Positions 5,913 to 61,667 of a stretch of DNA of 64,000 nucleotides are shown piece by piece. The stretch's first letter is position 1. Each line of letters starts with the position of its first letter. A program made the position numbers and the translations under genes. The notes under the pieces were generated by a model. It worked only from the letters and a program-made list of their open reading frames with translations, searched no databases and was not told where the DNA came from. Source of the stretch: an uncultured Gemmatimonadota bacterium (lineage in GTDB: Bacteria > Gemmatimonadota > Gemmatimonadetes > Palauibacterales > Palauibacteraceae); contig CAZEBA010000010.1 in assembly GCA_964510615.1 (NCBI GenBank), positions 15,754-79,753 on the forward strand, in the 5' to 3' direction.

Positions 5913-6027
5913 GGTGCTCAGCTCGGCGTGGGGGTCACGGGTTCCTTTCGGTTGCTATTCGGTATAGCGGAAGATCCCGACGGGCGCAAATCTTCTACGA
6001 CCTCGACCCGTGACAAGGAGAAGGTCC

Positions 6028-46267: not shown

Positions 46268-48187
46268 ATGGCGAAGTGGCGACTGCCTGAGTTGCTCAGC
46301 AGCCTCTCCGCCCGGGTCCCCTCATCCGAGGCGGCGGCGGGCAAGGACGAGCCGGAAGTTGCGGCGGCGGAGGAGTCGAGCCGTTTCGCCGAGCGACCGG
46401 TGGACCGGTCGGTGCTCTGGCTGCCCGGTGGTTGGGGGGAGCACGACAGCTCCCGACCGTACCCCTACGAGCTCTTCGTCGAGCAGGATCTGCTCCGGGC
46501 CGTCGCGGCTCATGCGCAGGAGGAGGTCGACGGGAGCTATGGCCTTCTGACCGGCCGCCTGCTCACCTGCCGGCGTACCCGAATCCCGTTCGTCCACGTC
46601 GAGGCTGCCCATCGCTCGGAAAACCCGCTTCCGACCGACGAAGACGTCGCGAGCTTTCGGGAGTTCTTTTGGTCGGTGCGCGAGAAGGCCGGTCGGCGCG
46701 GGCGAGTGCTGGTCGGCTGGTATCATACCCACTCCCTGCTTGGCCTCCAGCTCTCCGAGCGCGACCGGCAGCTCCACGTGACCCACTTCCACGACGACTG
46801 GTGCTGCGCGCTCGTCGTGGTGACCCGCCACGGAAGAGCCGAAGGCGGCTTCTTTCAACGTGACCGCGGCGACATCCTGTTTCGCCGATCCACTCGTCCG
46901 TTCCACGAGGTCGTCAACCAGAAGGTCCGGGCAGGCGGCGGCCCGTACGTGACGACCGTCTCGTGGGAGAATTACTGGACTCACGAGCCCGTACTGTTCG
47001 CGAGAAAGCCGGGTGAGCCGGAATCCCGCGGCGGCCGGTGGTACTGGCGCCGACGCGATCCGTCCAGCCGGACGACCACGCACCTGCCGGGGCTGGGTTC
47101 CGGGACCATCGCAAGCGAGAAACTGGACGGCCTTCGCGATCAACCTGCCCCACCCGACGAGGCCACGAGCCGGAAGCCGGAGAAGCCGAGCTACCAGCCG
47201 GCGCTGGGTCGTCCGCGGCGGGCCGAGGACGACGCCGCCTTACCGGAACAGGCCAGGCACCAGGGTCCGCCGTCGGCCGACGCGTGGGCCCAGTGGGAGC
47301 AGGGACGGGAAGTCCGCCGAGCTCGCACAGAGAAGCGACTGAAGCCGGACAGGCAGCAGGCGGCCGCCGACGCGACTCAGACTGAGGCCGATGCGGATCG
47401 GCGTGCGCGGGCGAGGCTGGCCGCGCGGGCGGCGGCGGAAGCGGCAGCTCGGGCGGCGGCGGAGGCGCTGGGCATCGAGAGCGAGACCGATGCGGTCACT
47501 GCGGAGGCCGTGTCGCGGGCAGAGAGGGAGGCGGCCGCCCTGGCATCGAGGCGGCGCCCTCCGCCCGAAGTCGAGCCCGCGCACGAGGTGTCGGAAGCCG
47601 TCGAGGCGGATGTTGCGGGCACGGCTGTCTCGGCGACCGAGGTGGACACGACCCGGGCGGCCGAGGTGGCGGCGGAAGTCGAGGTGGCGGAAGTCGAGGT
47701 GGCGGAAGTCGAGGTGGCGGATGGGTCCGAGGTGGCGGACGAGTCCGAGGCACCGACCGAGGTAGAGGCAGTCCCCGAAGCCGAAGGCGTGCCAGAGAGC
47801 CAGATCGCAGCTGCCGAGTCTCCGCCGGGCGAGACGGTTCGGAGGCCGTCCGGTGACCAGGAGACTCGCGCGGCGCAGCTCGAGCTGAAGGAGCCGACGG
47901 AGCCTACGGAGGTCGCCCGCGTGCCTGCCGAGCCGGACGGCGTTGCGGAGGCCGAGGTAGCCGAAGTCGAGTCTCGCGCCGAGCCGGCTCCGGCCGGGAA
48001 GCTCGCGATTCCGGGGCGCAAAGCAGACGTTGAAGCCGCCGACAAGCGGTCACCGAGCGAAGCCGACTTCGTGATGCCGCCGATGATCATTCCTGATCCT
48101 CCTTCGCGCGTGTCGTCACGGAAGTACGCGCTTTTGATCGGAATTGCGGTGCCGATTGCCGCCCTGCTGTGGTGGCTCTTGGTTTGA
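46268..48187 (+). CDS. JAMM/MPN+ metalloprotease-domain protein with long Ala/Glu-rich repetitive region and C-terminal TM anchor
   Basis: JAMM motif EVDGSYGLLTG...VGWYHTHSLLGLQLSERD (E...HxHx7SxxD). Tandem VAEVE repeats from a 15-bp DNA repeat near 47690-47740. C-terminal YALLIGIAVPIAALLWWLLV. Confidence 0.6.
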   Translation: MAKWRLPELLSSLSARVPSSEAAAGKDEPEVAAAEESSRFAERPVDRSVLWLPGGWGEHDSSRPYPYELFVEQDLLRAVAAHAQEEVDGSYGLLTGRLLTCRRTRIPFVHVEAAHRSENPLPTDEDVASFREFFWSVREKAGRRGRVLVGWYHTHSLLGLQLSERDRQLHVTHFHDDWCCALVVVTRHGRAEGGFFQRDRGDILFRRSTRPFHEVVNQKVRAGGGPYVTTVSWENYWTHEPVLFARKPGEPESRGGRWYWRRRDPSSRTTTHLPGLGSGTIASEKLDGLRDQPAPPDEATSRKPEKPSYQPALGRPRRAEDDAALPEQARHQGPPSADAWAQWEQGREVRRARTEKRLKPDRQQAAADATQTEADADRRARARLAARAAAEAAARAAAEALGIESETDAVTAEAVSRAEREAAALASRRRPPPEVEPAHEVSEAVEADVAGTAVSATEVDTTRAAEVAAEVEVAEVEVAEVEVADGSEVADESEAPTEVEAVPEAEGVPESQIAAAESPPGETVRRPSGDQETRAAQLELKEPTEPTEVARVPAEPDGVAEAEVAEVESRAEPAPAGKLAIPGRKADVEAADKRSPSEADFVMPPMIIPDPPSRVSSRKYALLIGIAVPIAALLWWLLV

Positions 48188-48355
48188 TCCACTGAGCGGA
48201 TTCGTCGACGCCCGTCGGGGCTTTGTCCGTGTACCAACCGGCCGCGATGCGATGACCTGCTCCCCCACCTGTTGCTGGAATTCCGTTCCCGAAGGGACCC
48301 GCGAACACGGCGGTGCTTCTGTTGCCGATACTCTTCCCCCCAAAGCCAGGGCGCC

Positions 48356-49384
48356 ATGACGAATCAGATCCGGAGCGTGGATAGGAGAGGGGACGCTGCG
48401 CGACCACAGGTTTCCGTTGTGGTTCCCATGCACAACGAGGCGGCCAACATACCGATCTTCTACGAGCGGTGCTCCGGCTCGCTCGAGCAGCTGGCGGTCG
48501 ATTGGGAGATGATCTGCATCAACGATGGGAGCACGGACGGCACGGTCGAGTGCGTCCTCCGACTACGAGAATCCGATTCTCGCGTGAAGCTCGTCGATCT
48601 GACGAAAAACTTCGGCAAGGAAGTGGCGCTGGCGGCCGGCCTCGATCACGCCCTCGGCGATGCCGTGATCGAGATCGACGCAGACCTCGAGCATCCGCCC
48701 GAAGTGATCGAGGACATGTTGCGAGTCTGGGGCGACGGTGCGGAGATAGTCTTCGCCGTCCGTCGGAACCGGCGTTCCGAAACGAGGACGAAGCGTTTCC
48801 TGGCAAACAGCTTTTATCGGGTGTTTGGAAAGCTGACGAGAATGGAAAAGGCCGAGGAGCTGAGCGATTTCTGCCTCCTGGATCGGAAGGCAGTCGATGC
48901 CCTCCGCCAGGTTCGCGAGCGCAGCCGGTTTACGAAGGGTCTGGTGGCTTGGATGGGCTATCGCCGCGGACTCGTCTATTACGACCTCGGAGCGAGGCAG
49001 GCGGGAGGTTCCAATTGGAGCTACTGGCGGCTTTGGAATCACGCGATCGATGGCATCACCGCGTTTAGCAGTGCCCCCCTCAAGTCCTGGACGTACGTGG
49101 GTACCTCGATCGCCGTGCTCTGCCTGTTTTACGCGGCTTTTATTGTCATGCGTACACTCATTCTGGGGATCGCGGTACCGGGATACGCCTCGTTGATGGT
49201 GGGTGTTCTCTTCATGGGCGGGGTGCAGTTGATCAGCCTCGGCGTGCTTGGAGAGTACATGAGCCGAGTCTACAGCGAGGTCAAGCAACGGCCTCTCTAC
49301 CTGGTCCGAGAGCGTTACGGGATCGCTGTGAGCGGCGAAGAGTCCCAGGAGCGGCAGCCGGTTGCGAGCCCCCGCATCCATTGA
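48356..49384 (+). CDS. Family-2 glycosyltransferase (polyprenol-phosphate sugar transferase, GtrB/DPM1/ArnC-like) with C-terminal TM helices
   Basis: ATG at 48356. VSVVVPMHNEAANI...CINDGSTDGT...; DxD-type motif EIDADLEHPP; two C-terminal TM helices. Confidence 0.8.
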   Translation: MTNQIRSVDRRGDAARPQVSVVVPMHNEAANIPIFYERCSGSLEQLAVDWEMICINDGSTDGTVECVLRLRESDSRVKLVDLTKNFGKEVALAAGLDHALGDAVIEIDADLEHPPEVIEDMLRVWGDGAEIVFAVRRNRRSETRTKRFLANSFYRVFGKLTRMEKAEELSDFCLLDRKAVDALRQVRERSRFTKGLVAWMGYRRGLVYYDLGARQAGGSNWSYWRLWNHAIDGITAFSSAPLKSWTYVGTSIAVLCLFYAAFIVMRTLILGIAVPGYASLMVGVLFMGGVQLISLGVLGEYMSRVYSEVKQRPLYLVRERYGIAVSGEESQERQPVASPRIH

Positions 49385-49411
49385 TCCAGTAGGCAGCCCG
49401 GCAACCGCGCC

Positions 49412-50302
49412 ATGCGTCTGGACTTTCAAGCGGATGATTTCGGCGCCACGTCAACCGTAACGTCCAACATCGCAGCAGCTTGGCGGGAGGGCGTACTGAC
49501 TGGCTGTAGCGTCCTGGCGAACGGTGAGGCACTGGAAGAGGCGGCTCGGGTGGCCAAGTCTTCACCGGCCGGATATCCTCGCATTGCAGTACATCTCAAT
49601 CTGTCGGAGGGAGCTCCGTTGCTCGATCCGGCGGAGGTGTCCGCCCTGGTGGACTCTGCGGGCCGGTTTCACCTTGGGTTCCTCGGTCTTTGGGGGCTTT
49701 GGTTCCGATCGCGTCGTCGCGAGAGACAGGCCCTTCTCCGCCAGGTAGAAGACGAATGGCGAGCACAGATTCAGCGGGTGTGCGACGTCTTCTCGCCATG
49801 TCCGGTGATCGGCATCGACGGACACATCCACGTCCACATGCTGCCATTCCTCTTTCCTATCGCCGCCGAGCTGGCACGGGTTTTCAACATCTCGGAGATC
49901 CGCGTCTCGCACGAGGTGCTGGACCTCAGATACGCGCGCACGCTCCACCCTGGACTGGCCGGGAACCTCGTCAAGCATCTCCTCCTGGCTTTCCTCTCGC
50001 GCCAGGCGCGGCGAACGGCGCAAGATGCCGGACTGGGCGGCTCAGAGAGAATCGCCGGCATCCTGCATGTGGGGCGCTTGGAGGTAGACACGCTCCAGGC
50101 GGCTATCGGCGCAGCGCGTCGCCGGCACGTGAGCTGGCTGGAGATCGTTTGCCACCCGGGGCGCGCCGCGCCAAGCGAGGCGGGGCGATGGAAGCGACAA
50201 CCATGGCTTCTACGCTTTTACCTGGATCAGCGACGAGATGTGGAGCGGGATGCGCTGATCCGCTTGCGCTCCCTTCTCGACGAGGAAGCACGCGACCGAT
50301 GA
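49412..50302 (+). CDS. YdjC/ChbG/HpnK-family carbohydrate deacetylase
   Basis: N-terminal MRLDFQADDFGATSTVTSNI (ADDFG signature) and conserved His cluster IDGHIHVHMLP. Confidence 0.75.
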   Translation: MRLDFQADDFGATSTVTSNIAAAWREGVLTGCSVLANGEALEEAARVAKSSPAGYPRIAVHLNLSEGAPLLDPAEVSALVDSAGRFHLGFLGLWGLWFRSRRRERQALLRQVEDEWRAQIQRVCDVFSPCPVIGIDGHIHVHMLPFLFPIAAELARVFNISEIRVSHEVLDLRYARTLHPGLAGNLVKHLLLAFLSRQARRTAQDAGLGGSERIAGILHVGRLEVDTLQAAIGAARRRHVSWLEIVCHPGRAAPSEAGRWKRQPWLLRFYLDQRRDVERDALIRLRSLLDEEARDR

Positions 50303-50559
50303 GCCGCACCCGCCATCTTGGGTGCTGCCAGCCGCCGGCACGCGGTCAACCAATGCTTGCTTGCACCGGACAGTGTGCTCAAACTCACAACTCCGCAACG
50401 CCGTTCGGCTGGCGAAAAAGCTGGAACGGCGGCTGCGGGAGCTCCGGCAAACTTGACTGGTTGCTCAGGACCCAGTGCTATGTGGTCGACAGGTAGATCA
50501 GCTCGGAGGTGGACCAAGCATCATGACGGTCCCTCTGCCGCCGCGACCGGGCTCCCAGC

Positions 50560-51828
50560 TTGACTCTCGCCAGGCTTCCCCACATACGATGGCCGCAAGT
50601 GCTATCTGTCCTGTTGGTGCTGATCCTCCTGTTTTTCTACGCTGTTCCGTTCTCGCGCCCCCCGGGAGGCTGGCCGCTAGGTGAGCTGCTGGTCAACTAT
50701 CAGGGAGGCTTTGTTCGCCGAGGTTTGTTGGGCGAAGTCGTTTTTCGTATCTCGCTGGCTCTAGACCTTTCTCCGCTCTTCCTGCTCCGCTGGCTGTTTG
50801 TTGCCCTGTCGGTCGTCAACATCCTCGTGTTTGTTTCTCTAAGCGCCGTCGAAGAGCGGCTGCTGAAGCGGGCCACCCTCCTTCTCGCCCCCGTATTGCT
50901 GCTATTCCCAGTGTATGACTTGGCCGCCTACGGTCGGAAGGACCTCATCACCACTGCGCTCCTCGGCGTCCATGCATTGATTGCGCAGCAAACGTTCCGT
51001 CGCCGATTGAGCTTCGGCACGTACGGTACATTACTCGCAGCTCTCATCGCTCCCCTCTTGATGGTGCAAATCCTGACTCACGACGTACAGATCTTTTTCA
51101 TTCCCTTCCACCTCGCCATCACTGTTGCCGTGCTGCAAGATTGTGATGACGCCACCCCACGTCGGGTGCTCTGGCCGTATGTGCCGGTAGCCGCTGTTTC
51201 GGTTCTACCCGTCCTGTTCAACGGTACGAAGGAGACGGCGATTGCAGTCTGCAATTCATGGCATGCCCTGATCGATCAGTTCGGGTATTGTCGTGTCAAC
51301 AGCGATAGCTTCAGCGACCTGGTGCACAGCGGAATGAAGGCGCTGGGGTGGGATTTGCGGAAGCCGATCGGGTACACTCTTCGAACCGTTCGGAATCGCG
51401 AGGCGGCAAGCCTGTTCTTCGTCGCAGCAGCGCTCAGTCTGGTTCCGTATTTCATTTTCTACAGGATGTCCGATGTTTGCCGTGCCGGCGCACCGGTTCC
51501 AGATCGGCTACAGCGGCTGTTGCGGTTCTCCCTGCTGGCGCCGCTGGCGCTGTTCATCATCGGCGGATGGGACTTCGGGAGGTGGCTGCACCTGATTACC
51601 AGTGGCCTGTTCGCGTTGACGTACTGCAGACCGCGACTCGTGCAGAGCCGCGTGCGGTTCGACTCGGTGCTGGAGGGAGCCGGATTCCGGGGGCTGCTTC
51701 CGTACCTACTATTGATCGGTTTGTACGTCGGTTTCTGGTACGTCCCGCATTGCTGCGAGCCGAGCAGCCTGCAGGGTGGGATGTTCGAGGCCGCCAGTGC
51801 CTCATTCCGACTTCTGTTCGGTGGTTAG
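50560..51828 (+). CDS. Hypothetical polytopic membrane protein
   Basis: 422 aa with ~10 predicted TM segments; lower local GC than the flanks (by eye). Confidence 0.5.
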   Translation: MTLARLPHIRWPQVLSVLLVLILLFFYAVPFSRPPGGWPLGELLVNYQGGFVRRGLLGEVVFRISLALDLSPLFLLRWLFVALSVVNILVFVSLSAVEERLLKRATLLLAPVLLLFPVYDLAAYGRKDLITTALLGVHALIAQQTFRRRLSFGTYGTLLAALIAPLLMVQILTHDVQIFFIPFHLAITVAVLQDCDDATPRRVLWPYVPVAAVSVLPVLFNGTKETAIAVCNSWHALIDQFGYCRVNSDSFSDLVHSGMKALGWDLRKPIGYTLRTVRNREAASLFFVAAALSLVPYFIFYRMSDVCRAGAPVPDRLQRLLRFSLLAPLALFIIGGWDFGRWLHLITSGLFALTYCRPRLVQSRVRFDSVLEGAGFRGLLPYLLLIGLYVGFWYVPHCCEPSSLQGGMFEAASASFRLLFGG

Positions 51829-53321
51829 TTGGGTACACAGGCGTCGAGTCGATAGATCAAGTAATAGGCGCTCGCCGCGATCCGATCGCACTCGGCCTCG
51901 ACGAATGCCAGAAGGTCGTCGTGGCGGCGCTTGAACTCTTCGAGGTCCGTGACGACCAGGTAGTCGGCCTCCGAGTCGAGGGCGGCGAACCGAAGGAACA
52001 GGTCCGGCGGACCCGCGTCAGGTTGCGGATCACGACCTCGGGACGACGCGCGCCGCCAGAAGTCCCCGGCCAGCTCGCCGTAGTATGAGAGCGGCACGCC
52101 GTAATAGGGGGAGATGAACACGACGTCCGTGCTGTGATCTACGATCTCTCCGATTTCTCGAGCCAGTTCTGGTGATTCGATCGTGCCGCCCCTCTCGCGA
52201 TGCTCCCGGACTTCGCCGAGGACGGCACGCAGCCCTATGCCCGAGGTAGCTACGAGAAGGGCCACGACGATTCGGCGATCTACTCGGTCCGCAAGGTAGG
52301 TGGCGATGACTTCCAGCACGGGGGTCGTGGCAATGCCAATCGCCGGGAGTAGCACCAGGTGGTAGTAACCAGCGAACCGAACGTGATAGGCGAACACCGC
52401 CAGGAACATGGCGTAGCCGGCGATGAGGCCGTATACGAGTTCCCTCGGCTGCTCCTTCCGAAGCCCGGGCAAACCGATAAGGGCGAGCAGGCAGGGCACG
52501 ACACCGAGAGCGTGTATGGCGGTCGAGGGCCACGACCGCCAGAAGCCGCTCGTAAGCAGGAGGTGGGGGAAGAAGGTCTTACTCGCCTTTTGGGCGAGCA
52601 TGTCGGAAAGGAAGATGCCGTACACGTAGTACGTCGTCCCGACGGCGAGGGCGGTCGATAGGAAAAGCGCGGCGTCGGCATAGCGGGGCGTGCGGGTCCG
52701 TAGTGCCCGCGCCAGCCAGAGGGCGAGGAAAGCGGCCAAGAGGCCGAAAAGGCACAGGGGCTTCACCAGTATGGCGACGCCTGACACGAAGGCGGCGAGC
52801 AACAGGCGCGCCGTCGTGGGCTGCTCGTGATGGCGAAGGATCAGGAGCAAACCGGCCATGAACACCAACATCATGAGGGGCTCGGGAACGAAGACGGCAC
52901 TGATCTCGATGCCCAGCGGCAAGAACAGGTAATAGGCGGTCACCGCCAAGGCGACGCCTGCCCGCGCGAAGCGGCGCAGGATCTGAAAGAATAGGATGCC
53001 CCCGACGAGCCAGAAGCCGGTCGACAGCGTGCTCGGAATCCTGAGTTGCTCCCGTCCGACAAGCCCGTAGACTCGGGCGACCAGCGCCTCGAAGATCGGA
53101 GGTTCCAAGACATCCTGGCGGGCCACGGCCGCCGCCGCTGCTCGAGTCCGCCACTGCGGCACGGGACGGTCGGCGAAGAAATAGCTCCTGGCGATCAATG
53201 CCGAGCGATACTGCCGCTCGGCGATGATGGTGGGCCGTTCGATGTCCAACCTCGCGCCGAGCGCCGCCGCGAGGAGCGCAACGAGAAAGATGGTCGAGAT
53301 CTTCTCCGACGAGACTGGCAT
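51825..53321 (-). CDS. GT-C fold glycosyltransferase, family 39/ArnT-like (PMT_2)
   Basis: Multi-TM N-terminal region with ArnT/PMT-like loops, plus a soluble C-terminal domain. Start taken at MPVSSEKISTIFLV. Confidence 0.6.
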   Translation of the reverse strand: MPVSSEKISTIFLVALLAAALGARLDIERPTIIAERQYRSALIARSYFFADRPVPQWRTRAAAAAVARQDVLEPPIFEALVARVYGLVGREQLRIPSTLSTGFWLVGGILFFQILRRFARAGVALAVTAYYLFLPLGIEISAVFVPEPLMMLVFMAGLLLILRHHEQPTTARLLLAAFVSGVAILVKPLCLFGLLAAFLALWLARALRTRTPRYADAALFLSTALAVGTTYYVYGIFLSDMLAQKASKTFFPHLLLTSGFWRSWPSTAIHALGVVPCLLALIGLPGLRKEQPRELVYGLIAGYAMFLAVFAYHVRFAGYYHLVLLPAIGIATTPVLEVIATYLADRVDRRIVVALLVATSGIGLRAVLGEVREHRERGGTIESPELAREIGEIVDHSTDVVFISPYYGVPLSYYGELAGDFWRRASSRGRDPQPDAGPPDLFLRFAALDSEADYLVVTDLEEFKRRHDDLLAFVEAECDRIAASAYYLIYRLDACVPN

Positions 53322-53401
53322 GGCAGAATGGTACAACATGAGGGTCGGCCGCGCGTGCGCCGCCGGCGCGTTGCGGCACCATGGGTACGTCCAGCGACCG
53401 G

Positions 53402-54667
53402 ATGAAGAGTCTGCGGCCGTCTAACGCGGCGGTTCTGATCGTCGCAACGGTCCTCTCTCTCGCCCTGGTCGAGCTCACCGCCCGGCTGCTCGTGGAGCCA
53501 TCCGATGTGTCGGCAGGGCGACTGCTCGGAGTGGAGCTTCCTCCGCTCGAGGCATTTGCGAAATCGCCGACGGCCTGGGACACGTCGGGAGAGAGAGCCG
53601 AGCGACTCGTCGATGACGGTCCGCTCACGTACGGCGATCTATACGGTATCCAGCGGGAGGATTCGCTGCTCGGATATACGGCTCTCGAGGGTACGCGCTC
53701 CCGAAATGGCTGGTGGGAGTCCAACGAGATCGGCGCGCGAGCCAGGGTCTCTTCAGCCCACGCCGAGCGAGGCCGTCTCCTCGTGTTTGGCGAGTCGTTC
53801 GCCCAGGGAAGCCGCGTCAAGCAGGAGGATGCCTGGGCCTCGGTACTGGACTCCCTGTGCGCCGAGTACGAGGTCATGAACTTCGGCGTTGACGGCTACA
53901 GCATGGGGCAGGCATACCTTCGCTACCGTGTCGTGGCATCGCGCATCGAACACGAGGCTGTACTTCTGATGTTCACCCCGAGCGTGGATCTGTGGCGCGA
54001 TCTGAATTCTCTCAGAGCCCTTCGTGGATGGATAGGCGTCCCGCTGGTGCCGCGCTTCGTGCTCGACGGCGAGGGCCTCAGGGTAGCAGAAAGGCCCTAC
54101 CCGAACCTGGCGACCGCCCTCGAAGCGAACCAGGGGGCGATCTCGCCGCCCCTGCACGCTTATCTACTTCGATACGACCGGTTCTATTGTGTACCGTTGT
54201 ACAAGGTGCCGCCCGTGGTGGGTGACTTCATGCTCTACAAGATCGCGGCGGCTGGATGGTGTCGCATTCGACTGATCCGCTTGAAGTCGGAGCTTCTCGA
54301 GCCGAAGGGGGAAGCCGTGCGGCTCGTGCAGGAGATCTTCGCGGCTGCGCGTCGCGAGGCAGAAGAGAACGGGGCGCGCTTCGTCCTGGCGATCCTGCCG
54401 GCACCGAACGACTTGAGTACTCGTGTGGCCAGCAAAGCGTACGCCAAGCAGCTCGACGAACTGGGGCAGCTCTTCTGCTCGGAGACTCCATGTATCGACC
54501 TGACCGAGGATCTGTCCTCGCTCCCGCCCGGGCAGCTTGATTTCGGTGCCGACGGGACGCACTACGGCCCCCTGGCGAATCGGCGGATCGCGGAGAGCAT
54601 AGCCGCGAGGTTCGGCTGTCACCAAGCGATTGGCGGGCGGCCAGCGCATGAGCCGGTCGAGGAGTGA
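53402..54667 (+). CDS. Membrane-anchored SGNH/GDSL-like hydrolase (putative)
   Basis: N-terminal signal anchor VLIVATVLSLALVEL; GDS-like block LLVFGESFAQG; distal DGTHY (DxxH-like). Tentative family assignment. Confidence 0.45.
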   Translation: MKSLRPSNAAVLIVATVLSLALVELTARLLVEPSDVSAGRLLGVELPPLEAFAKSPTAWDTSGERAERLVDDGPLTYGDLYGIQREDSLLGYTALEGTRSRNGWWESNEIGARARVSSAHAERGRLLVFGESFAQGSRVKQEDAWASVLDSLCAEYEVMNFGVDGYSMGQAYLRYRVVASRIEHEAVLLMFTPSVDLWRDLNSLRALRGWIGVPLVPRFVLDGEGLRVAERPYPNLATALEANQGAISPPLHAYLLRYDRFYCVPLYKVPPVVGDFMLYKIAAAGWCRIRLIRLKSELLEPKGEAVRLVQEIFAAARREAEENGARFVLAILPAPNDLSTRVASKAYAKQLDELGQLFCSETPCIDLTEDLSSLPPGQLDFGADGTHYGPLANRRIAESIAARFGCHQAIGGRPAHEPVEE

Positions 54668-56010
54668 TGCCACGTCACGCTGGTCGAACCGCCCAATGGC
54701 TGCACGCGGTGGTCATCGTCGTGGTCATGAACGCGATCTTCGCCGTCGTCGGCATGTTGGTGGCCACGGTGCAACGCGGGCCCCTAAGAGATCGAGTCAG
54801 GGACGCTTTTGAATCCGGCGATCTGATTCAAGCGGACTGGTCATCGTTCGACATCCGGAGAGGCTCGAATCAGTACGTTGAGTGCATCGTCCTCCAGATG
54901 GTCACCAATCCCGTCGACTCTCCGCTTCGATATGTCGCGGGGCCGATCGTGCGTTCGGTCGATCTGAGCGGGGCCGATCAGTGCCGGACGCTCTACCGAT
55001 TGACCGTGCGGGCGGAACCACCAGACGAGTTCCGGAGCTTTCGTTACACGCGCTACTGGCACGGATACAACGTATTCGCCGCTCTCTACCTGAGAGTCGC
55101 CAGCCTTCGAAGCGCCAGGCTCATGCTTGGAATCGGGCTGTTTGGCAGCCTGGTTCTGCTTGTTCTGGTGTCCATCAGGCAGCAAAACTCTCGATTACGT
55201 TCACTTGGCCTGGCAATAGGTATCTTCGGCCTCTTCTGCTGGGCCATCCCGTACTTCGGCCAGGCCTTCAGTCACGGTCCCGGCGACACGATCGTCGTCA
55301 TGGGGCTGGCCGGTCTCATTGCGTTCCCCGGTATTTGCTCGAACCCGCGGCGGCTGACCCTCTTCTGCGCACTCTACGGAACGCTGGTCGTCTACCTCGA
55401 GTTCATGACGGGACCGTTGCCAACGGCTGCCGGGTTCCTCTTTCCAGCGGTCTACGCTGCAAGGGGAACTGCGGTAGGCATCGATTCGAAGGAACAGTGG
55501 CTCACGTCGATCCGAGCCTTGACGGCGTTCGGGCTCGGAGCGGGCCTTACGGTGGTCCTCAAGCTCTTGCTCTCGGTCGCGGTCTTCGGTCCCGGCGCTC
55601 TCGATTCGTTTGTCAGCAACTTCGTTTACTATGCAAGACCGGCAAGCTCAGACGCGCCGCTGCCGACGTTCTTGTTGCCTTTCGGCCGACTGTATCGGAA
55701 GGGCACCACACTGACCTACGGCAGCGAGGTGGGTGCCCAGCTCTTGTTTGCCTCGGCTGTTGGATCGTGGGTGGCGTCGGCCCTGCTCGTCGCCCTAAGG
55801 AGAAGGCCGAGGAGTACCGACGATCTGCTCGCGCCCCTGACCGGTGTCCTGATCGTGATCATCTGGATCATGCTCTTCCAGACACACACCTTCGGCCACG
55901 CCGTGTTCATGGTTCGCATGATGATCGTGCCGATATCTCTCGGTTGGACAGCCGTGGCCTGGCAGCTCGGTCGAGAGCATCCCCCCTTGCCTCCTTCCCG
56001 TCCCGCGTAG
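54664..56010 (+). CDS. Hypothetical polytopic membrane protein
   Basis: 448 aa with ~10 TM helices; ATGA overlap with the upstream gene; no recognisable motif. Confidence 0.5.
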   Translation: MMPRHAGRTAQWLHAVVIVVVMNAIFAVVGMLVATVQRGPLRDRVRDAFESGDLIQADWSSFDIRRGSNQYVECIVLQMVTNPVDSPLRYVAGPIVRSVDLSGADQCRTLYRLTVRAEPPDEFRSFRYTRYWHGYNVFAALYLRVASLRSARLMLGIGLFGSLVLLVLVSIRQQNSRLRSLGLAIGIFGLFCWAIPYFGQAFSHGPGDTIVVMGLAGLIAFPGICSNPRRLTLFCALYGTLVVYLEFMTGPLPTAAGFLFPAVYAARGTAVGIDSKEQWLTSIRALTAFGLGAGLTVVLKLLLSVAVFGPGALDSFVSNFVYYARPASSDAPLPTFLLPFGRLYRKGTTLTYGSEVGAQLLFASAVGSWVASALLVALRRRPRSTDDLLAPLTGVLIVIIWIMLFQTHTFGHAVFMVRMMIVPISLGWTAVAWQLGREHPPLPPSRPA

Positions 56011-56045
56011 TACGTTTCGGTTACTTTCGGGTTTTATTCGGTTTC
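56009..56045 (+). promoter_or_regulatory. Candidate operator/promoter upstream of imuA: near-palindrome AGTACGTTTCGGTTACT plus TTTCGG(G)TT direct repeats
   Basis: Unusually AT-rich stretch (…AGTACGTTTCGGTTACTTTCGGGTTTTATTCGGTTTCAGT…) about 50-85 nt upstream of the imuA start; SOS cassettes are normally LexA-controlled. Confidence 0.25.
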
Positions 56046-56092
56046 AGTCCGGGACCGGGGTTTTCTGACCGTCGGGTGCTCAGGAGGGGAAG

Positions 56093-56803
56093 GTGTCTCG
56101 CGCGGTCGCGCTCCAGGAGCTCGAGCGGAGGATCGAGGGGGTAGAGGGCCGCCCGGCGGCCGGGGTGGATACGGTGCCGACGGGCCTGGTCCCGCTGGAC
56201 GCGTTGCTGCCGGAGGGAGGGCTGCCGCGCGGGCGGGCGACGGAGTGGTCCGGTCCGCGCTCCTGCGGGAAGCTGGCCCTTCTCCGCCGTGCCTTGAGCG
56301 GGTTTCACGCGCTCGGGGAGCCGGTGGTGCTGATCGATGCCCTCCATCTGGCCCACGCGCCGGATTGGCTGGAGCTGTCGGAGCGCGGCCCGGCGTTCTG
56401 GGTCATCCGCCCGCCTCCCGGAGAGGCAGCCTGGTGTGCCGATCTGGTGCTTCGCAGCGGGGCGTTCGGGGCGGTCGTTCTCGACGTGGTCGATGGTCCG
56501 CCGTCGGGAGTCGAGGTGCGTCGGAGCGTGGGCGTGCGGCTCCAGCGACTGGCCGAGGAGGCGGGCTCCGTCCTGATCCTGCTCGCGGAGCTTCCCGTGG
56601 CCGGCCTCCGGCTCCGTTTCCGGCCGGGCCAGGTCCGACCCGATGACGGCTCTCCCTTCGGCCCGTTCCTCCCGTCGAGCCGTCCCGTGCGGGTGCAGGT
56701 GGGCAGGGGAAGGTGGGTGGAGCTTCCCGTGGCGTGCCCGCCACCGGCCCTGCGGAGCTCGGAAACCGTGGACCTCGGCCGGGATCGGAAAGGGCCGTTG
56801 TGA
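56093..56803 (+). CDS. imuA: ImuA (SOS-mutagenesis cassette protein, RecA/SulA-like)
   Basis: GTG start after AGGAGGGGAAGG; conserved LERRIEGVEG...VPTGLVPLDALLPEGGLPRGRATEW...VLIDA... pattern of ImuA. Confidence 0.7.
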   Translation: MSRAVALQELERRIEGVEGRPAAGVDTVPTGLVPLDALLPEGGLPRGRATEWSGPRSCGKLALLRRALSGFHALGEPVVLIDALHLAHAPDWLELSERGPAFWVIRPPPGEAAWCADLVLRSGAFGAVVLDVVDGPPSGVEVRRSVGVRLQRLAEEAGSVLILLAELPVAGLRLRFRPGQVRPDDGSPFGPFLPSSRPVRVQVGRGRWVELPVACPPPALRSSETVDLGRDRKGPL

Positions 56804-58215
56804 GCCGGATCGCCTCGGTACGGGTGGAGCGTTCCGGGGCCGGGGCACGGGATCTCATGGGGCCGCTGCTGCGGGGGAGCCCCCGTGTCATGCTCGTGGG
56901 ACCGGAGTCCGGTCGGGTCGATGCGCGCGGGTGGGAGCGTCTGGGCGGCGAGCCGGCGCTCGGCCGGGTTCTCATCGAGGCGCTCGAGGAAGCCGGGATG
57001 CGCGGCATCGGCGTCGGGATCGGGGATGTGGCGGTGGTGGCCGATGCCGCGGCCCGGCTGGCTGCTCCGGGTCCGATCATCGTTCCATCCGGCGGGGGGC
57101 GGGAGTTCCTCGCCCCGCTGCCCCTTGGGATCCTGCCGATCTCCGAGGAGCTGTGCGAGGAATTTCGAGCCCTCGGGTGGGTGCGGATCGGCCAGCTGGC
57201 CGAGCGGGAGCGGAGTGAGCTGGAAGCGCGCTTCGGTCCGGCCGGACTCGAGGCGCACCGGTGGGCGTGTGGGGAGGACGAGCGCGCCTTCCGTCCCCTC
57301 CCGCCGCCGGAGCGACCGGAGGTGTCGCTGGAGCTGGAAGGCGCGGTGACGGCCCTGGAGCCGTTGCTGTTCGCACTTCGCCATCTGCTGGCCAGGCTCT
57401 GCGCCGGCCTGACCGGAGGGTCGTGCGTCTCCGAGCTCCGACTTCGCCTGGAGCTGGATGGAGGTGGCCGTCGCGAGGCGACGGTCGTGCCGGCGCGGCC
57501 GACCCGTCGGGAGCCGTTGCTGTTCGATCTCTGCCGAGCGGCGCTGGAGCGCTCGGAGGAGGGGGGAAGGCTGGCAGCCCCGGTGGTCGGCCTCGCGCTG
57601 GAGCTCCGCGAGACCGCGCCCGCGGAGGCCCGGCAGGGAGACCTGTTCCGGCGTGACTGGCGGGTGGGGGGAGGATGGGACGACCCGCTCGGGGCGGCGA
57701 TCGCGCTCGCGCGACTTCAGGCACGGTTGGGGGAGAACGTGGTCGTCACGCCCGGCGTCCGCGCGGATCACCGACCCGAGAGCCGTAGCGCCTGGATCTC
57801 CGTGACGCCAGAGGTTCTCGGAGCCCGGAACGGCGCGTCCGGAGCCCGGGTCGGTCCGTCCGGAGCCCGGGTCGGTCCGTCCGGGGCGCATGCCGGCATG
57901 CCCGAAGCCGCCACGGCTGCCCTGCCCGAAGCCGCCACAGCCGGCCTGCCCGCCGTCCTCCGGCTGCTGCCCGAGCCCGAGCCCGTTCGCGTGCGGTCGG
58001 AGGCGGACCGGCCCATCGAGCTGTGGGACGACCGGGGCCGGCACGAGGTGGTCGCGGCCGAGGGACCGGAGCGGCTGTCGGGGGACTGGTGGAAGGATCC
58101 GTACCGGCGCGAGTACTTCCGCGTCTGCACCTCGGGGGGAGAGCTGCTCTGGCTCTTCCGCGAGTACCGCCGCAGCGGGGAGCTGCGATGGTGGCTGCAC
58201 GGATGGTGGGACTGA
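56800..58215 (+). CDS. imuB: ImuB (inactive Y-family polymerase-like protein); appears N-terminally short
   Basis: GTGA overlap with imuA. Y-family thumb/HhH region LPLGILPISEELCEEFRALGWVRIGQLAERERSELEARFGPAGLEAHRWACGED. The proline/alanine-rich C-terminal part contains 24-nt tandem repeats (ARVGPSG x2). Confidence 0.7.
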   Translation: MSRIASVRVERSGAGARDLMGPLLRGSPRVMLVGPESGRVDARGWERLGGEPALGRVLIEALEEAGMRGIGVGIGDVAVVADAAARLAAPGPIIVPSGGGREFLAPLPLGILPISEELCEEFRALGWVRIGQLAERERSELEARFGPAGLEAHRWACGEDERAFRPLPPPERPEVSLELEGAVTALEPLLFALRHLLARLCAGLTGGSCVSELRLRLELDGGGRREATVVPARPTRREPLLFDLCRAALERSEEGGRLAAPVVGLALELRETAPAEARQGDLFRRDWRVGGGWDDPLGAAIALARLQARLGENVVVTPGVRADHRPESRSAWISVTPEVLGARNGASGARVGPSGARVGPSGAHAGMPEAATAALPEAATAGLPAVLRLLPEPEPVRVRSEADRPIELWDDRGRHEVVAAEGPERLSGDWWKDPYRREYFRVCTSGGELLWLFREYRRSGELRWWLHGWWD

Positions 58216-61200
58216 GGGCGCAGTTCACCCGCGTGGAGGCACCCACCTACGTGGAGTTGGCCGCACGCTCGGCGTTCTCGCTCCTCATCGGGGCGTCCAC
58301 GCCCGAGGCCCTGGCCGAGCGAGCGGCCGAGCTGGGAATGCCGGCGCTGGCGCTGGCCGACCTGTTCGATCTCGGGGGGATCGTCCGCTTCACCCGCTGC
58401 TGCGACCGGGTCGGCGTCCGCCCGATCATCGGCGCCACGGTCCGGGTCGTCCCGCCCCCTGCGGTCATCCCGCCTTCGGCGGGCGGGCCGCACACCGCCA
58501 CACTGGCCCGGCTTCACCTCGTTCTGCTGTGCAGGAATCGAGGGGGATACCACAACCTCTGCGGGCTGATCACGCGGGCGCGGCTCTCGAACCCGCGCGG
58601 CCACCCGCGGCTCGGCCTCGGGGATCTAGAGGGACGGACGGACGGGCTGATCTGTCTGTTCGGGACGACGGATCTTCCGGATCCGCACCCGCAGGCTGCG
58701 ATTCTTGCCCGCATCGGGAGCGCCTTTCCGGGCCGGTTCCACCCGGTTCTCGAGCACCACGGTCTGCCGGAGGACGCGCGCCGCTGCGCGGCGTGGATCG
58801 CCTACTCGCGAGCGACGGGCCTTCCCTGGCTCCCCGCGAACGCTCCGCGGTACGCGCGGCCATCCGACCGGATCGTGCACGACGTGCTCACCTGCATCCG
58901 CTACGACACCACCCTGGACGAGGCCGGCGACCGCCTCCTGCCGAACGGCGAGTGGTATCTGAAGTCGGCCGTGCAGATGAAGCGTCGCTGGTGTCAGGCA
59001 CAGGGCGTCTCCCTCCGTGAAGGGCGACGAGGTCCTCTTCCGCAAGCTGGCGGACGGCTGGTCTTCGGAGCCTCCGACGGGAGTCTCCTCAGGCCGTCCA
59101 AGGCTTGCTCCGGAGGATCTCGCTCGCCACTTGCGGAGACACCCTCGGGTCCTCGGTCCGGCGATGGTCCGCCGCCAGCTCGCGAAGCGGGTTTCCCGCT
59201 ACCGGCCGAGTGCGACTGTCTCGGCTGCGAGGGGTTGCGGCGAACGGCCGAGGTCGCGGCGCGCTGCCGCTTCCGGGTCGAGGGACTCAAGCCGCCACTC
59301 CCGGTCTTCCGGGGCTTCGGCGAGCGGCAGCCGATGCCCGGGGACGGCCGGTCCGGTTCCCGCGACTCCCACGCCCTGCTGCGGGGGCTGGTGGAGGAGG
59401 GGGCGCGAAGACGGTACGGTGACCGCTTCGGGCCCGAGCACCGGCGCCAGATCGACCACGAGCTCGGCATCATCGGCCGCCTCGGCCTCAGCGACTACTT
59501 CCTGATCATCCACGACATCGTCCGCTTCGCCAACCAGCGGGACATCCTTGTCCAGGGGCGTGGCTCGGCCGCCAACTCGGCGGTCTGCTACTGCCTGGGC
59601 ATCACGGCCGTGGACCCGGTGGGGCTGGACCTCCTGTTCGAGCGCTTCCTCTCGGAGGAGCGGGACGAGGCGCCGGACATCGACCTGGATATCGCCCACA
59701 ACGACCGGGAGGAGGTGCTCCAGTACGTCTACCGGAAGTACGGCCGCGAGCACGCGGCGATGGTATGCGAGGCGATCACCTACCGGGGACGGATGGCCGT
59801 ACGGGACGCGGCCCGGGTGCTGGGCTTCTCGACGACCCAGGCGGACCGTCTGGCAGCGGAAGCCGACCGGAGCGAAGCGGCCGACGCGGCCGACCGCCTG
59901 GCCGACGGAGGCGTGGTCCGGGCCGGGCTCGATCCTCGGCACCCCCGCGTGCCGGCGCTGATCCGGGCCGTACGAGGCCTGAACGAGCTCCCCCGCCACC
60001 GCTCGATCCACGTCGGAGGCTTCGTCCTCTCGGGGCGGCCGATCGGCGAGGTGGTGCCGGTGGAGGCCGCCTCGATGCCCGGCCGCACCGTGATCCAGTG
60101 GGACAAGGACGACCTGGACCTTCCGGGCCTCATCAAGGTCGACCTCCTGGGCCTCGGCATGCTCACCGTCCTCCAGGCGGCGATCCGTCACATTCGGGAG
60201 ACGCGCGGGGTGGAGCTCGACCTGGCCCGGCTTCCTCCCGATGATCCGGTCGTCTACGACATGATCTGCGAGGCCGACACCATCGGCGTGTTCCAGATCG
60301 AGTCGCGCGCCCAGATGAACACCCTGCCGCGTGTCCGCCCGCGCTGCTTCTACGACCTGGTCATCGAGGTGGCGCTCATCCGGCCCGGTCCGATCCAGGG
60401 TGACATGGTGCACCCTTACCTGCGGCGCCGGAACGGCGAGGAGCCGGTCGCCTACCTGGATCCGCGGCTGGAACCGGTGCTGAAGCGAACGCTCGGCGTC
60501 CCGCTCTTTCAGGAGCAGGGGATGAAGGTGGCCGTGGTGCTGGCCGGCTTCACCCCCGCGCAGGCGGACAAGCTCCGGCGGGCGATGGGGTTCAAGCGCT
60601 CGCACCAGGCGATGACCGAGGTGGGCGAGGAGCTGGCCGCGGGGCTGGCGAGGAACGGCGTCCGGCCGGACGTTGCCGCCCAGATCTTCAAGCAGCTCAC
60701 GGCGTTCGCCAACTACGGCTTCCCCGAGAGCCACTCCGCCAGCTTCGCCCTGCTCGTGTACGCCTCCGCCTGGCTGAAGCGCTACTACGCGCCGGAGTTC
60801 TTCGCCGCGATGCTGAACGCCCAGCCGATGGGCTTTTACGCGCCCGCCACCCTGATCCGGGACGCCCAGCGGCACGGGGTTCGGGTGCTCCCCGTCGATC
60901 TGGCCTGTTCGGCCTGGGACTGCACGTTGGAGCCTGCGTCCGGCAGCGAGGGGCAAGCGCCCGCCCTGCGGCTCGGGCTCCGGCTCGTTCGGGGTCTGGG
61001 CGCGCGGGCGCGCGACCGGCTGCAGCGAGCGACCGAAGAGGAGCCCTTCTCCTCGGTAGAGGATGTGGTGCGCCGGAGCGGCCTCGAGCGGGCGGCCCTC
61101 CGTCTGCTGGCCGAGGCGGGTGCGTTCCGGACTCTGTGGCCAGGACGTCGCGAAGCTCTCTGGGAGCTGCTGCGCCAGTTTCGGGGCGATGCGGGTCCGC

Positions 61201-61667
61201 TGGCCCCCCATCGCGCTCCCCGCCGCAGAGGCCGCCGACTTCCACGCATGAGCCGATTCGAGCGGGTGCTCGCTGACTACCGCACCCTCGGGCTCTCGAC
61301 CGAGGGGCATCCGATGGAGTTCGTGCGGCCGATGCTGCGCACACGGGGCGTGCTGAGCGCCGCGGAGGTGCGAAAGTGCTCGGCCGGCACCGAGGTGACC
61401 GTGGCGGGACTTGCCATCACCCGGCAGAGGCCGAGCACCGCGAAGGGCATCATGTTCCTCACGCTGGAGGATGAGACAGGGCTGGCGAACTTCGTCGTGA
61501 TGCCGGATGTGCAGGCTCGCTACCGAGACGCCCTGCTGGCGCACGTTCCGATCCTGCGGGGGGTGGTGGAGAGCGAGAGCGGCGTCGTGAACGTGCTCGT
61601 CACCCGCGCAGGGGTCCTGCCGTTGGGCGACCGCACACCGGTCGTGCGAAGCCGAGACTTCCGGTAG
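58203..61667 (+). CDS. dnaE2: Error-prone DNA polymerase III alpha-type (DnaE2/ImuC)
   Basis: PHP N-terminus; Pol III alpha palm/fingers (…RGSAANSAVCYCLGIT…PDIDLDI…; …GVFQIESR…; …VALIRPGPIQGD…); OB fold at the C-terminus. The overlap with the imuB end matches the usual cassette order. Confidence 0.9.
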   Translation: MVGLRAQFTRVEAPTYVELAARSAFSLLIGASTPEALAERAAELGMPALALADLFDLGGIVRFTRCCDRVGVRPIIGATVRVVPPPAVIPPSAGGPHTATLARLHLVLLCRNRGGYHNLCGLITRARLSNPRGHPRLGLGDLEGRTDGLICLFGTTDLPDPHPQAAILARIGSAFPGRFHPVLEHHGLPEDARRCAAWIAYSRATGLPWLPANAPRYARPSDRIVHDVLTCIRYDTTLDEAGDRLLPNGEWYLKSAVQMKRRWCQAQGVSLREGRRGPLPQAGGRLVFGASDGSLLRPSKACSGGSRSPLAETPSGPRSGDGPPPAREAGFPLPAECDCLGCEGLRRTAEVAARCRFRVEGLKPPLPVFRGFGERQPMPGDGRSGSRDSHALLRGLVEEGARRRYGDRFGPEHRRQIDHELGIIGRLGLSDYFLIIHDIVRFANQRDILVQGRGSAANSAVCYCLGITAVDPVGLDLLFERFLSEERDEAPDIDLDIAHNDREEVLQYVYRKYGREHAAMVCEAITYRGRMAVRDAARVLGFSTTQADRLAAEADRSEAADAADRLADGGVVRAGLDPRHPRVPALIRAVRGLNELPRHRSIHVGGFVLSGRPIGEVVPVEAASMPGRTVIQWDKDDLDLPGLIKVDLLGLGMLTVLQAAIRHIRETRGVELDLARLPPDDPVVYDMICEADTIGVFQIESRAQMNTLPRVRPRCFYDLVIEVALIRPGPIQGDMVHPYLRRRNGEEPVAYLDPRLEPVLKRTLGVPLFQEQGMKVAVVLAGFTPAQADKLRRAMGFKRSHQAMTEVGEELAAGLARNGVRPDVAAQIFKQLTAFANYGFPESHSASFALLVYASAWLKRYYAPEFFAAMLNAQPMGFYAPATLIRDAQRHGVRVLPVDLACSAWDCTLEPASGSEGQAPALRLGLRLVRGLGARARDRLQRATEEEPFSSVEDVVRRSGLERAALRLLAEAGAFRTLWPGRREALWELLRQFRGDAGPLAPHRAPRRRGRRLPRMSRFERVLADYRTLGLSTEGHPMEFVRPMLRTRGVLSAAEVRKCSAGTEVTVAGLAITRQRPSTAKGIMFLTLEDETGLANFVVMPDVQARYRDALLAHVPILRGVVESESGVVNVLVTRAGVLPLGDRTPVVRSRDFR

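Follow-up and report, generated by a model that had tools for sequence, protein, structure and literature searches.

Within a 64,000-nt stretch of DNA from an uncultured Gemmatimonadota bacterium (the window), we analyzed a block of six genes, designated G1 to G6, at positions 48272-56010, which has a lower guanine-plus-cytosine (GC) content than its surroundings. We consider it rather probable that this block is a chromosomal accessory locus for the decoration of an envelope glycan with sugars linked to a lipid carrier, and that it includes an amino-sugar pathway similar to those of NaxD and Lgm. The products of the six genes are a polyprenyl-phosphate glycosyltransferase (G1), a YdjC-family deacetylase (G2), three membrane proteins assigned by family or by structure prediction to the GT-C glycosyltransferase fold (G3, G4, and G6), and a membrane-anchored SGNH protein (G5).

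The GC content of the block is 0.623, as compared with 0.694 across the remainder of the window. A profile along the window showed that none of the 408 windows of equal length outside the block, which range from 0.672 to 0.710, is as low. Both edges are abrupt, at ~48,000 and at ~56,050-56,100, and 200-nt sub-windows of the block range from 0.55 to 0.71. An earlier reading of this DNA made from the letters alone (the sequence-only reading) had described a fall from ~70% to 58-62% over ~8 kb. The fall is real, but the estimate is slightly low, as the whole block has 62.3%. At the first, second, and third codon positions (GC1, GC2, and GC3), the six island genes have values of 0.66, 0.46, and 0.74, respectively, versus 0.74, 0.51, and 0.82 in the 39 other open reading frames (Mann-Whitney p = 0.001, 0.013, and 0.002). 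The lowest GC3 of the island, 0.70, belongs to the gene of the soluble YdjC protein, G2. Since the deficit is seen at every codon position, GC3 included, the amino-acid content of membrane proteins explains only part of the drop. The island also has a low GC content in two related loci, L049 and L051. The six genes fill the block completely, and there is no space for further genes. A scan for sigma-70 promoters returned zero sites, and a terminator scan was not above background.

The first gene, G1 (48356..49384, + strand), has its probable start at ATG 48356; the mechanically called reading frame begins at TTG 48272. The protein has a cytoplasmic catalytic domain with an IDADLEHPPE (DAD) motif, followed by C-terminal transmembrane (TM) helices with TM segments at ~252-298. 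It matches PF00535 in Pfam (4.4e-30) and, over its full length, PgfS (7.8e-79, the best match) and ArnC (9.4e-47) in NCBIfam. Both NCBIfam matches are under the equivalog cutoffs; with the ArnC model, the score is 159 bits against a cutoff of 529. In the PDB, the Synechocystis GtrB sll0501 (5EKP) was matched at 2e-108 over residues 16-324, and ArnC at 4e-44. Judged by these matches, G1 is a polyisoprenyl-phosphate glycosyltransferase of the GtrB/ArnC/DPMS type within family GT2. The sugar handled by GtrB is glucose (PMC4728340, PMC12698845), and that of PgfS is N-acetylgalactosamine (GalNAc) (PMC11092751).

The second gene, G2 (49412..50302, + strand), starts 27 bp downstream of G1. It matches PF04794 at 1.5e-41 (143.5 bits, cutoff 29.7), and in NCBIfam it matches HpnK (1.4e-30) and ChbG (5.4e-24), both under the cutoffs. 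In the PDB, it matches the chitooligosaccharide deacetylase 7VI8 (4.9e-14). The ADDFG and DGHIHVH (DxHxHVH) motifs align with 7VI8 and 2I5I, and by this alignment G2 is a metal-dependent deacetylase of the YdjC family with intact catalytic motifs. Neither a signal peptide nor a TM segment was found in G2, so the protein is predicted to be cytoplasmic. With the GT2 gene 27 bp upstream and GT-C genes adjoining, the gene context of G2 is like that of NaxD and LgmC. The hopanoid HpnI-HpnK-HpnJ pathway was considered for this pair and rejected: G2 scores 106.5 bits with HpnK (cutoff 232.6), G1 scores 16.9 bits with HpnI (cutoff 310), and the block contains neither a radical-SAM gene (HpnJ) nor hopanoid genes.

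The spacer between G2 and G3 contains the remnant of a decayed S-adenosylmethionine (SAM)-dependent methyltransferase gene (50355..50487, + strand). It was recognized by comparison with the gene of locus L051, with which blastn aligned 47 nt at 85% identity (4e-10) and 84 nt at 77% (5e-15), and tblastn aligned pieces in differing frames. The methyltransferase gene is intact between the YdjC gene and G3 in L049, L050, L051, L056, and L057.

Three of the products are polytopic membrane proteins for which a GT-C fold is predicted or recognized at the family level. G3 (50599..51828, + strand) is a protein of 409 amino acids without a large soluble domain, which belongs to an uncharacterized family (precomputed match to PF27463). 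Apart from this precomputed match of G3, neither G3 nor G6 matched anything in Pfam, including a relaxed search at E <= 10, or in NCBIfam. The AlphaFold model of G3, built on the family alignment, has a predicted local distance difference test score (pLDDT) of 88.2 and a predicted template modelling score (pTM) of 0.90. The model shows the GT-C architecture, i.e., TM1, a first periplasmic loop with short helices, and a conserved TM core, and its best structural matches are the mycobacterial AftB and AftD and ALG3/ALG12. The first periplasmic loop contains the invariant motif NYQGGFVRRGLLGE, with G37, F38, R40, R41, and G42 invariant in the loop and D325 and R328 invariant elsewhere. Two acidic loop residues are conserved to different degrees: position 29 is E or D in 46 of 49 members (E29), and position 46 is E in 37 of 49 (E46). 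The family has hundreds of metagenomic members, including some cyanobacterial ones beside a pathway like that for decaprenyl-phosphoryl-arabinose (DPA).

G6 (54664..56010, + strand), whose start overlaps the stop of G5 (GTGA), belongs to a family of about 50 clusters that has no Pfam or NCBIfam model. Its AlphaFold model on the family alignment (pLDDT 92.9, pTM 0.92) likewise has the GT-C membrane architecture. The large first periplasmic loop carries two invariant Cys residues, D58 (47/47), E/D73 (48/48), and the motif RYTRYWHG; the two Cys fit a periplasmic location of the loop. Based on the predicted structures, both G3 and G6 have a GT-C fold and are hence probably glycosyltransferases.

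G4 (51825..53321, - strand; 498 amino acids), whose transcription converges on that of G3 and diverges from that of G5, is probably a glycosyltransferase of the PMT_2-type GT-C group, judged by its family. The protein itself scores 24.1 bits with PMT_2, under the gathering cutoff of 26.1, whereas each of the 14 members of its family matches at E <= 0.01, the best of them at 7.6e-19. Loop 1 has conserved E73 and E78 (LEPPIxE). No match was found for G4 in NCBIfam. In a phmmer search of PDB chains with the single sequence, no match, ArnT included, was obtained at E <= 1, and the family profile retrieved only two chains of PIG-M (glycosylphosphatidylinositol mannosyltransferase 1) at E = 0.35, ArnT being absent. 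A 38% homologue of G4 is located in a GtrA-GT2-GT-C operon. Profile-profile comparison of the G3, G4, and G6 families revealed no relationship (probability <1%), so the three proteins are not paralogues. Homologues of G4 and G6 were also observed within large polysaccharide-synthesis clusters (L003 and a contig of JGI 3300042731, and also L045/L046). These clusters encode a Polysacc_synt flippase, several GT2 and GT4 enzymes, methyltransferases, Polysacc_deac_1, a sulfotransferase, and PIG-L, and the presence of the homologues there is consistent with polysaccharides as the acceptors of both GT-C families.

The remaining protein, G5 (53381..54667, + strand), has a single TM segment at residues 16-34, and is predicted to be a periplasmic protein with an N-terminal membrane anchor. 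Its own matches are limited to LA_2490 GDSL in NCBIfam (2e-6), and no Pfam match was obtained even in the relaxed search at E <= 10. The family is large (2,815 representatives), and among 44 sampled members 30 match Lipase_GDSL_2 (PF13472) and 4 match ALGX. The best match of the family profile in the PDB is AlgJ, at 4e-5. S139 (in the G-E-S of block I), N167, and H394 (in the DGTH of block V) are invariant and G172 is near-invariant. By these family-level matches and conserved blocks, G5 is a member of the SGNH/GDSL hydrolase-acyltransferase superfamily. It is present in all island variants seen, and is close to imuA wherever the flank is visible (the window, L001, L049, and L050).

Thus, the GT2, YdjC, and SGNH assignments of the sequence-only reading were upheld, by the GtrB match at 2e-108, by PF04794 at 1.5e-41 with ADDFG, and at the family level with Ser139 and His394, respectively. 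Its assignment of G4 as a GT39/ArnT/PMT-like GT-C enzyme holds for the PMT_2 family; G4 itself stays below the cutoff, and ArnT was not matched. Instead of the three unknown multi-TM proteins that it had counted, we found only two further polytopic proteins, G3 and G6, both with a GT-C fold by prediction.

The island lies between two conserved flanks. On the left side is up639 (46268..48187, + strand), a backbone gene conserved beside an SH3-domain gene, and the island begins just downstream of it. On the right side is the cassette of imuA (RecA-like), imuB, and dnaE2 (56093..61667, + strand), which was identified by Pfam, NCBIfam, and synteny; ImuA matches PF00154 at 9.7e-10, and the error-prone polymerase matches NF004225 with 1195 bits. 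The order SH3-protein gene, up639, imuA, imuB, dnaE2 is kept in 12 or more species representatives, and G1-G6 are all missing from these. The cassette is therefore a syntenic part of the Gemmatimonadota backbone and is not mobile here, contrary to its earlier description as a mobile-type SOS cassette. The right-hand border can be placed by an alignment of seven Gemmatimonadota loci representing all states of the site, in which ~110 bp upstream of imuA (55985..56092, + strand) are conserved. This conservation in all states sets the border at ~55,985.

Look-ups by exact sequence with G4 and with the YdjC protein of the window returned no contig. The nearest loci to the window all come from metagenome-assembled genomes of Gemmatimonadota. 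Comparing them in the orientation of the window, we found five states of the site between up639 and imuA. In state A (L008 and L010), the site contains only a GSDH-type gene. In state B (L001), there are a GSDH-type gene, a G4 homologue (54%), and a G5 homologue (66%). The window represents state C, in which G1, G2, the methyltransferase remnant, and G3 are followed by G4 in the reverse direction and by G5 and G6 in the forward direction. In state D (L049, L050, L051, L056, and L057), G1, G2, the SAM-methyltransferase gene, and G3 are followed by a reversed G6 and a forward G5; in L049 and L051, G6 thus fills the slot that G4 has in the window. State E, seen in a fragment (L044), consists of reversed G6 and G4 and a forward G5. 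The methyltransferase fragments in the G2-G3 spacer of the window indicate that states C and D share a common ancestor. The GSDH/DUF7133-type gene, which encodes a soluble glucose/sorbosone dehydrogenase-like protein, was observed in the relatives without G1-G3 (L008 7872-9035, L010, and L001 11569-12711) and is absent from the entire 64 kb window.

The identity of ImuA and ImuB splits the loci into two clades, {window, L001} and {L008, L010, L049}, with values of 89-96% for loci of one clade and 69-78% for loci of different clades; for ImuB alone, identity inside each clade is 91-96%, in spite of the differing island content. The block is missing from L008 and L010, whose ImuA/ImuB share 91-96% identity with those of its carrier L049, and L001 is largely without the block though its flanking genes are 89-94% identical to those of the window. 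Either clade therefore includes a close relative from which the island is missing wholly or for the most part. With differing content at a fixed site and conserved flanks in close relatives, the block is a variable accessory locus; the relatives without it include L008, L010, and at least 12 backbone-keeping species representatives. As to its origin, the identity between clades is 76, 71, 65, 67, and 62% for G1, G2, G3, G5, and G6, respectively, and 75-76% for ImuB, 68-69% for ImuA, 74-76% for the SH3 protein, and 56% for up639. No tRNA gene, integrase, transposase, or convincing flanking repeats were found in the window, and all six genes encode envelope enzymes; a mobile-element origin was rejected on these grounds. 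The absence of mobility features, together with a divergence like that of the backbone, points to an old, recombining, hypervariable accessory locus resembling those of the O-antigen or gtr type. We consider it unlikely that a mobile element inserted the block recently, and the proposed horizontal acquisition of the module is not supported as a recent event, since mobility genes are lacking and the island is 62-76% identical between clades versus 56-76% for the backbone.

Linkage among the genes separates their roles. The GT2, YdjC, and G3 genes, with the methyltransferase gene between the latter two, always occur together and in the same order in L049, L050, L051, L056, L057, and the window, in which the methyltransferase is decayed. 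L049 and L051 keep GT2-YdjC-G3 without G4, and L001 keeps a G4 homologue without GT2 or YdjC. Because G3 is constantly linked to the GT2 and YdjC genes and G4 is optional, G3 ranks ahead of G4 as the candidate user of the G1/G2 product. The previously noted parallel between GT2, a deacetylase, and an ArnT-like enzyme is reasonable as an amino-sugar analogy, but its last member is probably G3 and not G4. G4 or G6 co-occurs with G5 in states B, C, D, and E.

Distant homologues of G3 are found beside a different donor pathway. In cyanobacterial metagenome-assembled genomes (L052-L055), they lie directly after genes for a UbiA prenyltransferase, a HAD phosphatase, an SDR protein, and a FAD oxidase. 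This neighbourhood resembles, in its gene content, the mycobacterial decaprenyl-phosphoryl-arabinose (DprE1/DprE2) route to a polyprenyl-phosphate pentose and suggests an uncharacterized system of lipid-linked pentose glycosylation outside Actinobacteria. It fits G3 as a consumer of a lipid-linked donor. UbiA, HAD/LPG_synthase_TM, SDR, and FAD oxidase neighbours of distant G3 members were also observed in L062, L064, L082, L107, and L112-L114. Among metagenomic G3 loci, ~12 have DprE-like and ~10 have GtrB-like GT2 neighbours; most of these loci are short contigs, and the low-identity GT2 matches are non-specific.

From these results, we propose the following pathway. On the cytoplasmic face of the membrane, G1 would transfer a sugar, most likely an N-acetylhexosamine (HexNAc), from a UDP-sugar to undecaprenyl phosphate (Und-P). 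G2 would then remove the N-acetyl group to give undecaprenyl-P-hexosamine, as with NaxD and LgmC. According to PMC11279074, citing Llewellyn 2012, NaxD of Francisella and Acinetobacter deacetylates Und-P-GalNAc prior to transfer to lipid A, and in Bordetella lgmA/B/C are needed for glucosamine (GlcN) on lipid A, with LgmC as the YdjC precedent (PMC4993483). In the relatives, the SAM methyltransferase, the gene of which has decayed in the window, may modify the sugar next. A flippase encoded outside the island would turn the lipid-linked sugar to the periplasmic side, where G3 would pass it to an envelope acceptor. G4 and G6 may serve as further periplasmic transferases of an exchangeable slot, acting on other positions or acceptors, and G5 may put O-acyl groups on the same glycan or take them off. 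A TolC-like OEP protein, MlaD, and MacB/HlyD are encoded in the window, which indicates that the organism has an outer membrane. The probable acceptor is the lipopolysaccharide (LPS) or some other polysaccharide on the surface of the diderm. The analysis itself establishes the family or fold of each protein, the conserved residues of catalytic type, the linkage of the genes in relatives, and the variability of the accessory locus at its fixed site. We infer the identity of the sugar, the action of G2 on a lipid-linked substrate, the pairing of GT-C proteins with donors, the acceptor, and whether G5 adds or removes acyl groups.

Several points weigh against this pathway. The sugar is its main uncertainty, as G1 resembles both GtrB and PgfS by sequence. 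Its specificity is not revealed by the sequence, its nearest relatives differ in this respect, and the nearest solved one, GtrB, handles glucose, a sugar without an N-acetyl group to be removed. G2 scores under the equivalog cutoffs of both HpnK and ChbG, and its substrate is one that we infer. The first loop of G3 has no invariant Asp; at E29, all but three of the 49 members have E or D. A Foldseek search of the PDB with G6 gave no significant match. The island encodes no flippase of the GtrA or ArnE/F type, and no GtrA homologue was found in the window. Three GT-C proteins exceed the need of a simple model with one donor synthase. A search of the literature on the structure of Gemmatimonadota lipid A found nothing.

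It is possible, if somewhat improbable, that two independent modules share one hot spot. In such a case, G1-G2-G3 would form the lipid-linked sugar pathway, and G4/G6 with G5 would carry out glycosylation and O-acylation with donors made elsewhere in the genome. L001 has only G4 and G5, L044 has G6-G4-G5 together, and G5 accompanies the imuA flank in each variant where that flank is seen (the window, L001, L049, and L050). Moreover, G4 and G5 are divergent, G5 and G6 overlap, and homologues of G6 occur also in polysaccharide clusters that have no YdjC gene. However, the modules are always adjacent where both are present, and a second donor synthase is not visible in the window. This explanation overlaps largely with the single decoration locus that we prefer, and the sharing of the donor is the sole difference.

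The preferred decoration locus may also be read more widely, and we offer this reading only tentatively. G3 (PF27463) and G6 would be two uncharacterized small bacterial GT-C families, and G3 would be a general consumer of whichever donor pathway is adjacent. The paired pathway would be GtrB plus YdjC (with or without the methyltransferase) in Gemmatimonadota and the DprE1/DprE2/UbiA-like route to a polyprenyl-P-pentose in cyanobacteria. The locus would be a serotype-like hot spot beside the SOS cassette, which diversifies a cationic amino-sugar decoration of the outer membrane, either as a free amine or in an N-methylated form.

We regard a lipid A modification system of the NaxD/Lgm/Arn type as unlikely. 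G1 would correspond to FlmF2/LgmA/ArnC, G2 to NaxD/LgmC, and G4 to FlmK/LgmB/ArnT, and the addition of galactosamine (GalN) or GlcN to lipid A phosphates would lower the susceptibility to cationic peptides. The same three enzyme classes are present in the block, the organism is a diderm, some G4 homologues carry the JGI label 'Ara4N transferase-like', and the NaxD and Lgm systems (PMC11279074 and PMC4993483, respectively) provide precedents. On the other hand, G4 shows no linkage to the G1-G2 pair, as L049 and L051 have G1-G2-methyltransferase-G3 without G4 and L001 has the G4 homologue without G1 or G2. No sequence match to ArnT or to another PDB chain supports this role of G4, either with the protein itself or with its family profile, and the two further GT-C-fold proteins and the SGNH protein would be superfluous.

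O-glycosylation of Ser/Thr-rich extracytoplasmic regions of envelope proteins, like that by the streptococcal GtrB/PgtC2 and PgfS/PgfM1 or the actinobacterial PMT, appears more improbable still. PgfS is the best NCBIfam match of G1, G4 falls in the PMT_2 family, and there is a streptococcal precedent (PMC11092751), but the island contains no gene for a Ser/Thr-rich target (the neighbouring up639 protein is Ala/Glu-rich), and a deacetylase and an SGNH enzyme are foreign to the known pathways of protein O-glycosylation. That the low GC is merely a by-product of hydrophobic proteins in a vertically inherited core genome is scarcely credible: membrane proteins make up five of the six products, GC2 is low, and the island genes diverged between the two clades about as far as the backbone, but GC3 is lower too (0.74 vs. 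0.82, p = 0.002) and lowest in the soluble YdjC gene (0.70). Moreover, neither L008 nor L010 has the block, L001 is without most of it, and it is missing from 12 backbone-keeping species representatives.

Some features of the flanks and of the rest of the window were also recorded. The up639 protein has a weak JAB/MPN-like N-terminus, an acidic Ala/Glu-rich region, and a C-terminal TM anchor; the acidic region (EVAEV...) is encoded by 15-nt tandem repeats at 47584-47739. The conserved region upstream of imuA, into which the last codons of G6 extend, contains a tandem TTCGG-containing repeat, TTTCGG...TTTCGGGTTTTATTCGGTT, with the motif at 56025-56043, which is unique in the window. The region is a candidate SOS/LexA-type operator of imuA-imuB-dnaE2 in the phylum. 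In L001, a GT2 gene for a protein of 257 amino acids (5530-6303) is inserted between imuB and dnaE2, and gaps of 1.4-1.9 kb are present there in L013, L015, L024, and L037, which points to a second small variable site within the SOS cassette. Ordinary chromosomal genes of the window encode GyrA, Rho, MoeA, a PBP4-type peptidase, and an intein-containing ThyX. The ThyX gene (107-2374, + strand) is split by an intein with an HNH endonuclease domain, so that PF02511, PF14890, and PF01844 are found in one open reading frame of 755 amino acids.

Modification of the NaxD/Lgm type has so far been known from a few pathogens, with effects on how they resist antimicrobial peptides and how innate immunity recognizes them. 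If the proposed pathway is true, lipid-linked amino-sugar modification of this type extends to a poorly cultured but environmentally abundant phylum, and two unannotated families, G3 and G6, gain a fold and a testable predicted function. Close relatives that differ in surface-glycan genes at one fixed chromosomal site show the pattern expected under phage or predator selection, and such a hot spot is not a new principle.

By enzyme class, the island is most similar to FlmF2-NaxD-FlmK of Francisella and LgmA-LgmC-LgmB of Bordetella, with which it shares the enzyme classes and, by our proposal, the logic: a GT2 enzyme to make Und-P-HexNAc, a deacetylase of the YdjC superfamily for the sugar on its lipid carrier, and a GT-C enzyme on the periplasmic side. 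In contrast to these systems, the GT-C protein tied to GT2 and YdjC is G3, which belongs to a family unrelated in sequence to FlmK, LgmB, and ArnT. Moreover, the island adds two GT-C-fold proteins and an SGNH enzyme, its relatives add a methyltransferase, and the host belongs to Gemmatimonadota. The Arn system (PmrF/ArnC-ArnD-ArnT) is similar to the proposed pathway in that a GT2 enzyme makes the lipid-linked sugar, deacylation takes place on the carrier, and a GT-C enzyme performs the transfer. However, ArnD is a deformylase with the polysaccharide-deacetylase (NodB) fold and G2 is a YdjC protein, equivalents of ArnA/B and ArnE/F are lacking in the island, and G1 is far under the ArnC cutoff (159 vs. 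529 bits).

The Gtr systems of O-antigen glucosylation consist of the flippase GtrA, GtrB, and a serotype-specific GT-C enzyme, GtrC, and G1 is a close homologue of GtrB (2e-108). The island shares with them a donor synthase combined with variable, interchangeable GT-C enzymes, as well as the character of an accessory, lower-GC, strain-variable surface determinant. It differs in having no GtrA flippase or prophage context, in its three GT-C proteins and SGNH enzyme, and in its deacetylase, which implies an amino sugar and not glucose. For G3, the best structural matches are the mycobacterial GT-C arabinofuranosyltransferases AftB and AftD and ALG3/ALG12, and its distant homologues adjoin DprE1/DprE2/UbiA-like genes, which resemble those for the synthesis of the Aft donor. 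Sequence similarity between G3 and these enzymes is not detectable, and G3 is a far smaller protein (409 amino acids), coupled to a GT2/YdjC donor pathway. G5 could be either a transferase or an esterase. The family match to AlgJ is weak (4e-5), and no MBOAT or AT3 acyl-donor partner is found nearby. G5 shares with the SGNH O-acetyltransferases AlgJ and AlgX, and with those of the PatB/OatA type, an N-terminal anchor, a periplasmic SGNH domain, and the conserved Ser and His.

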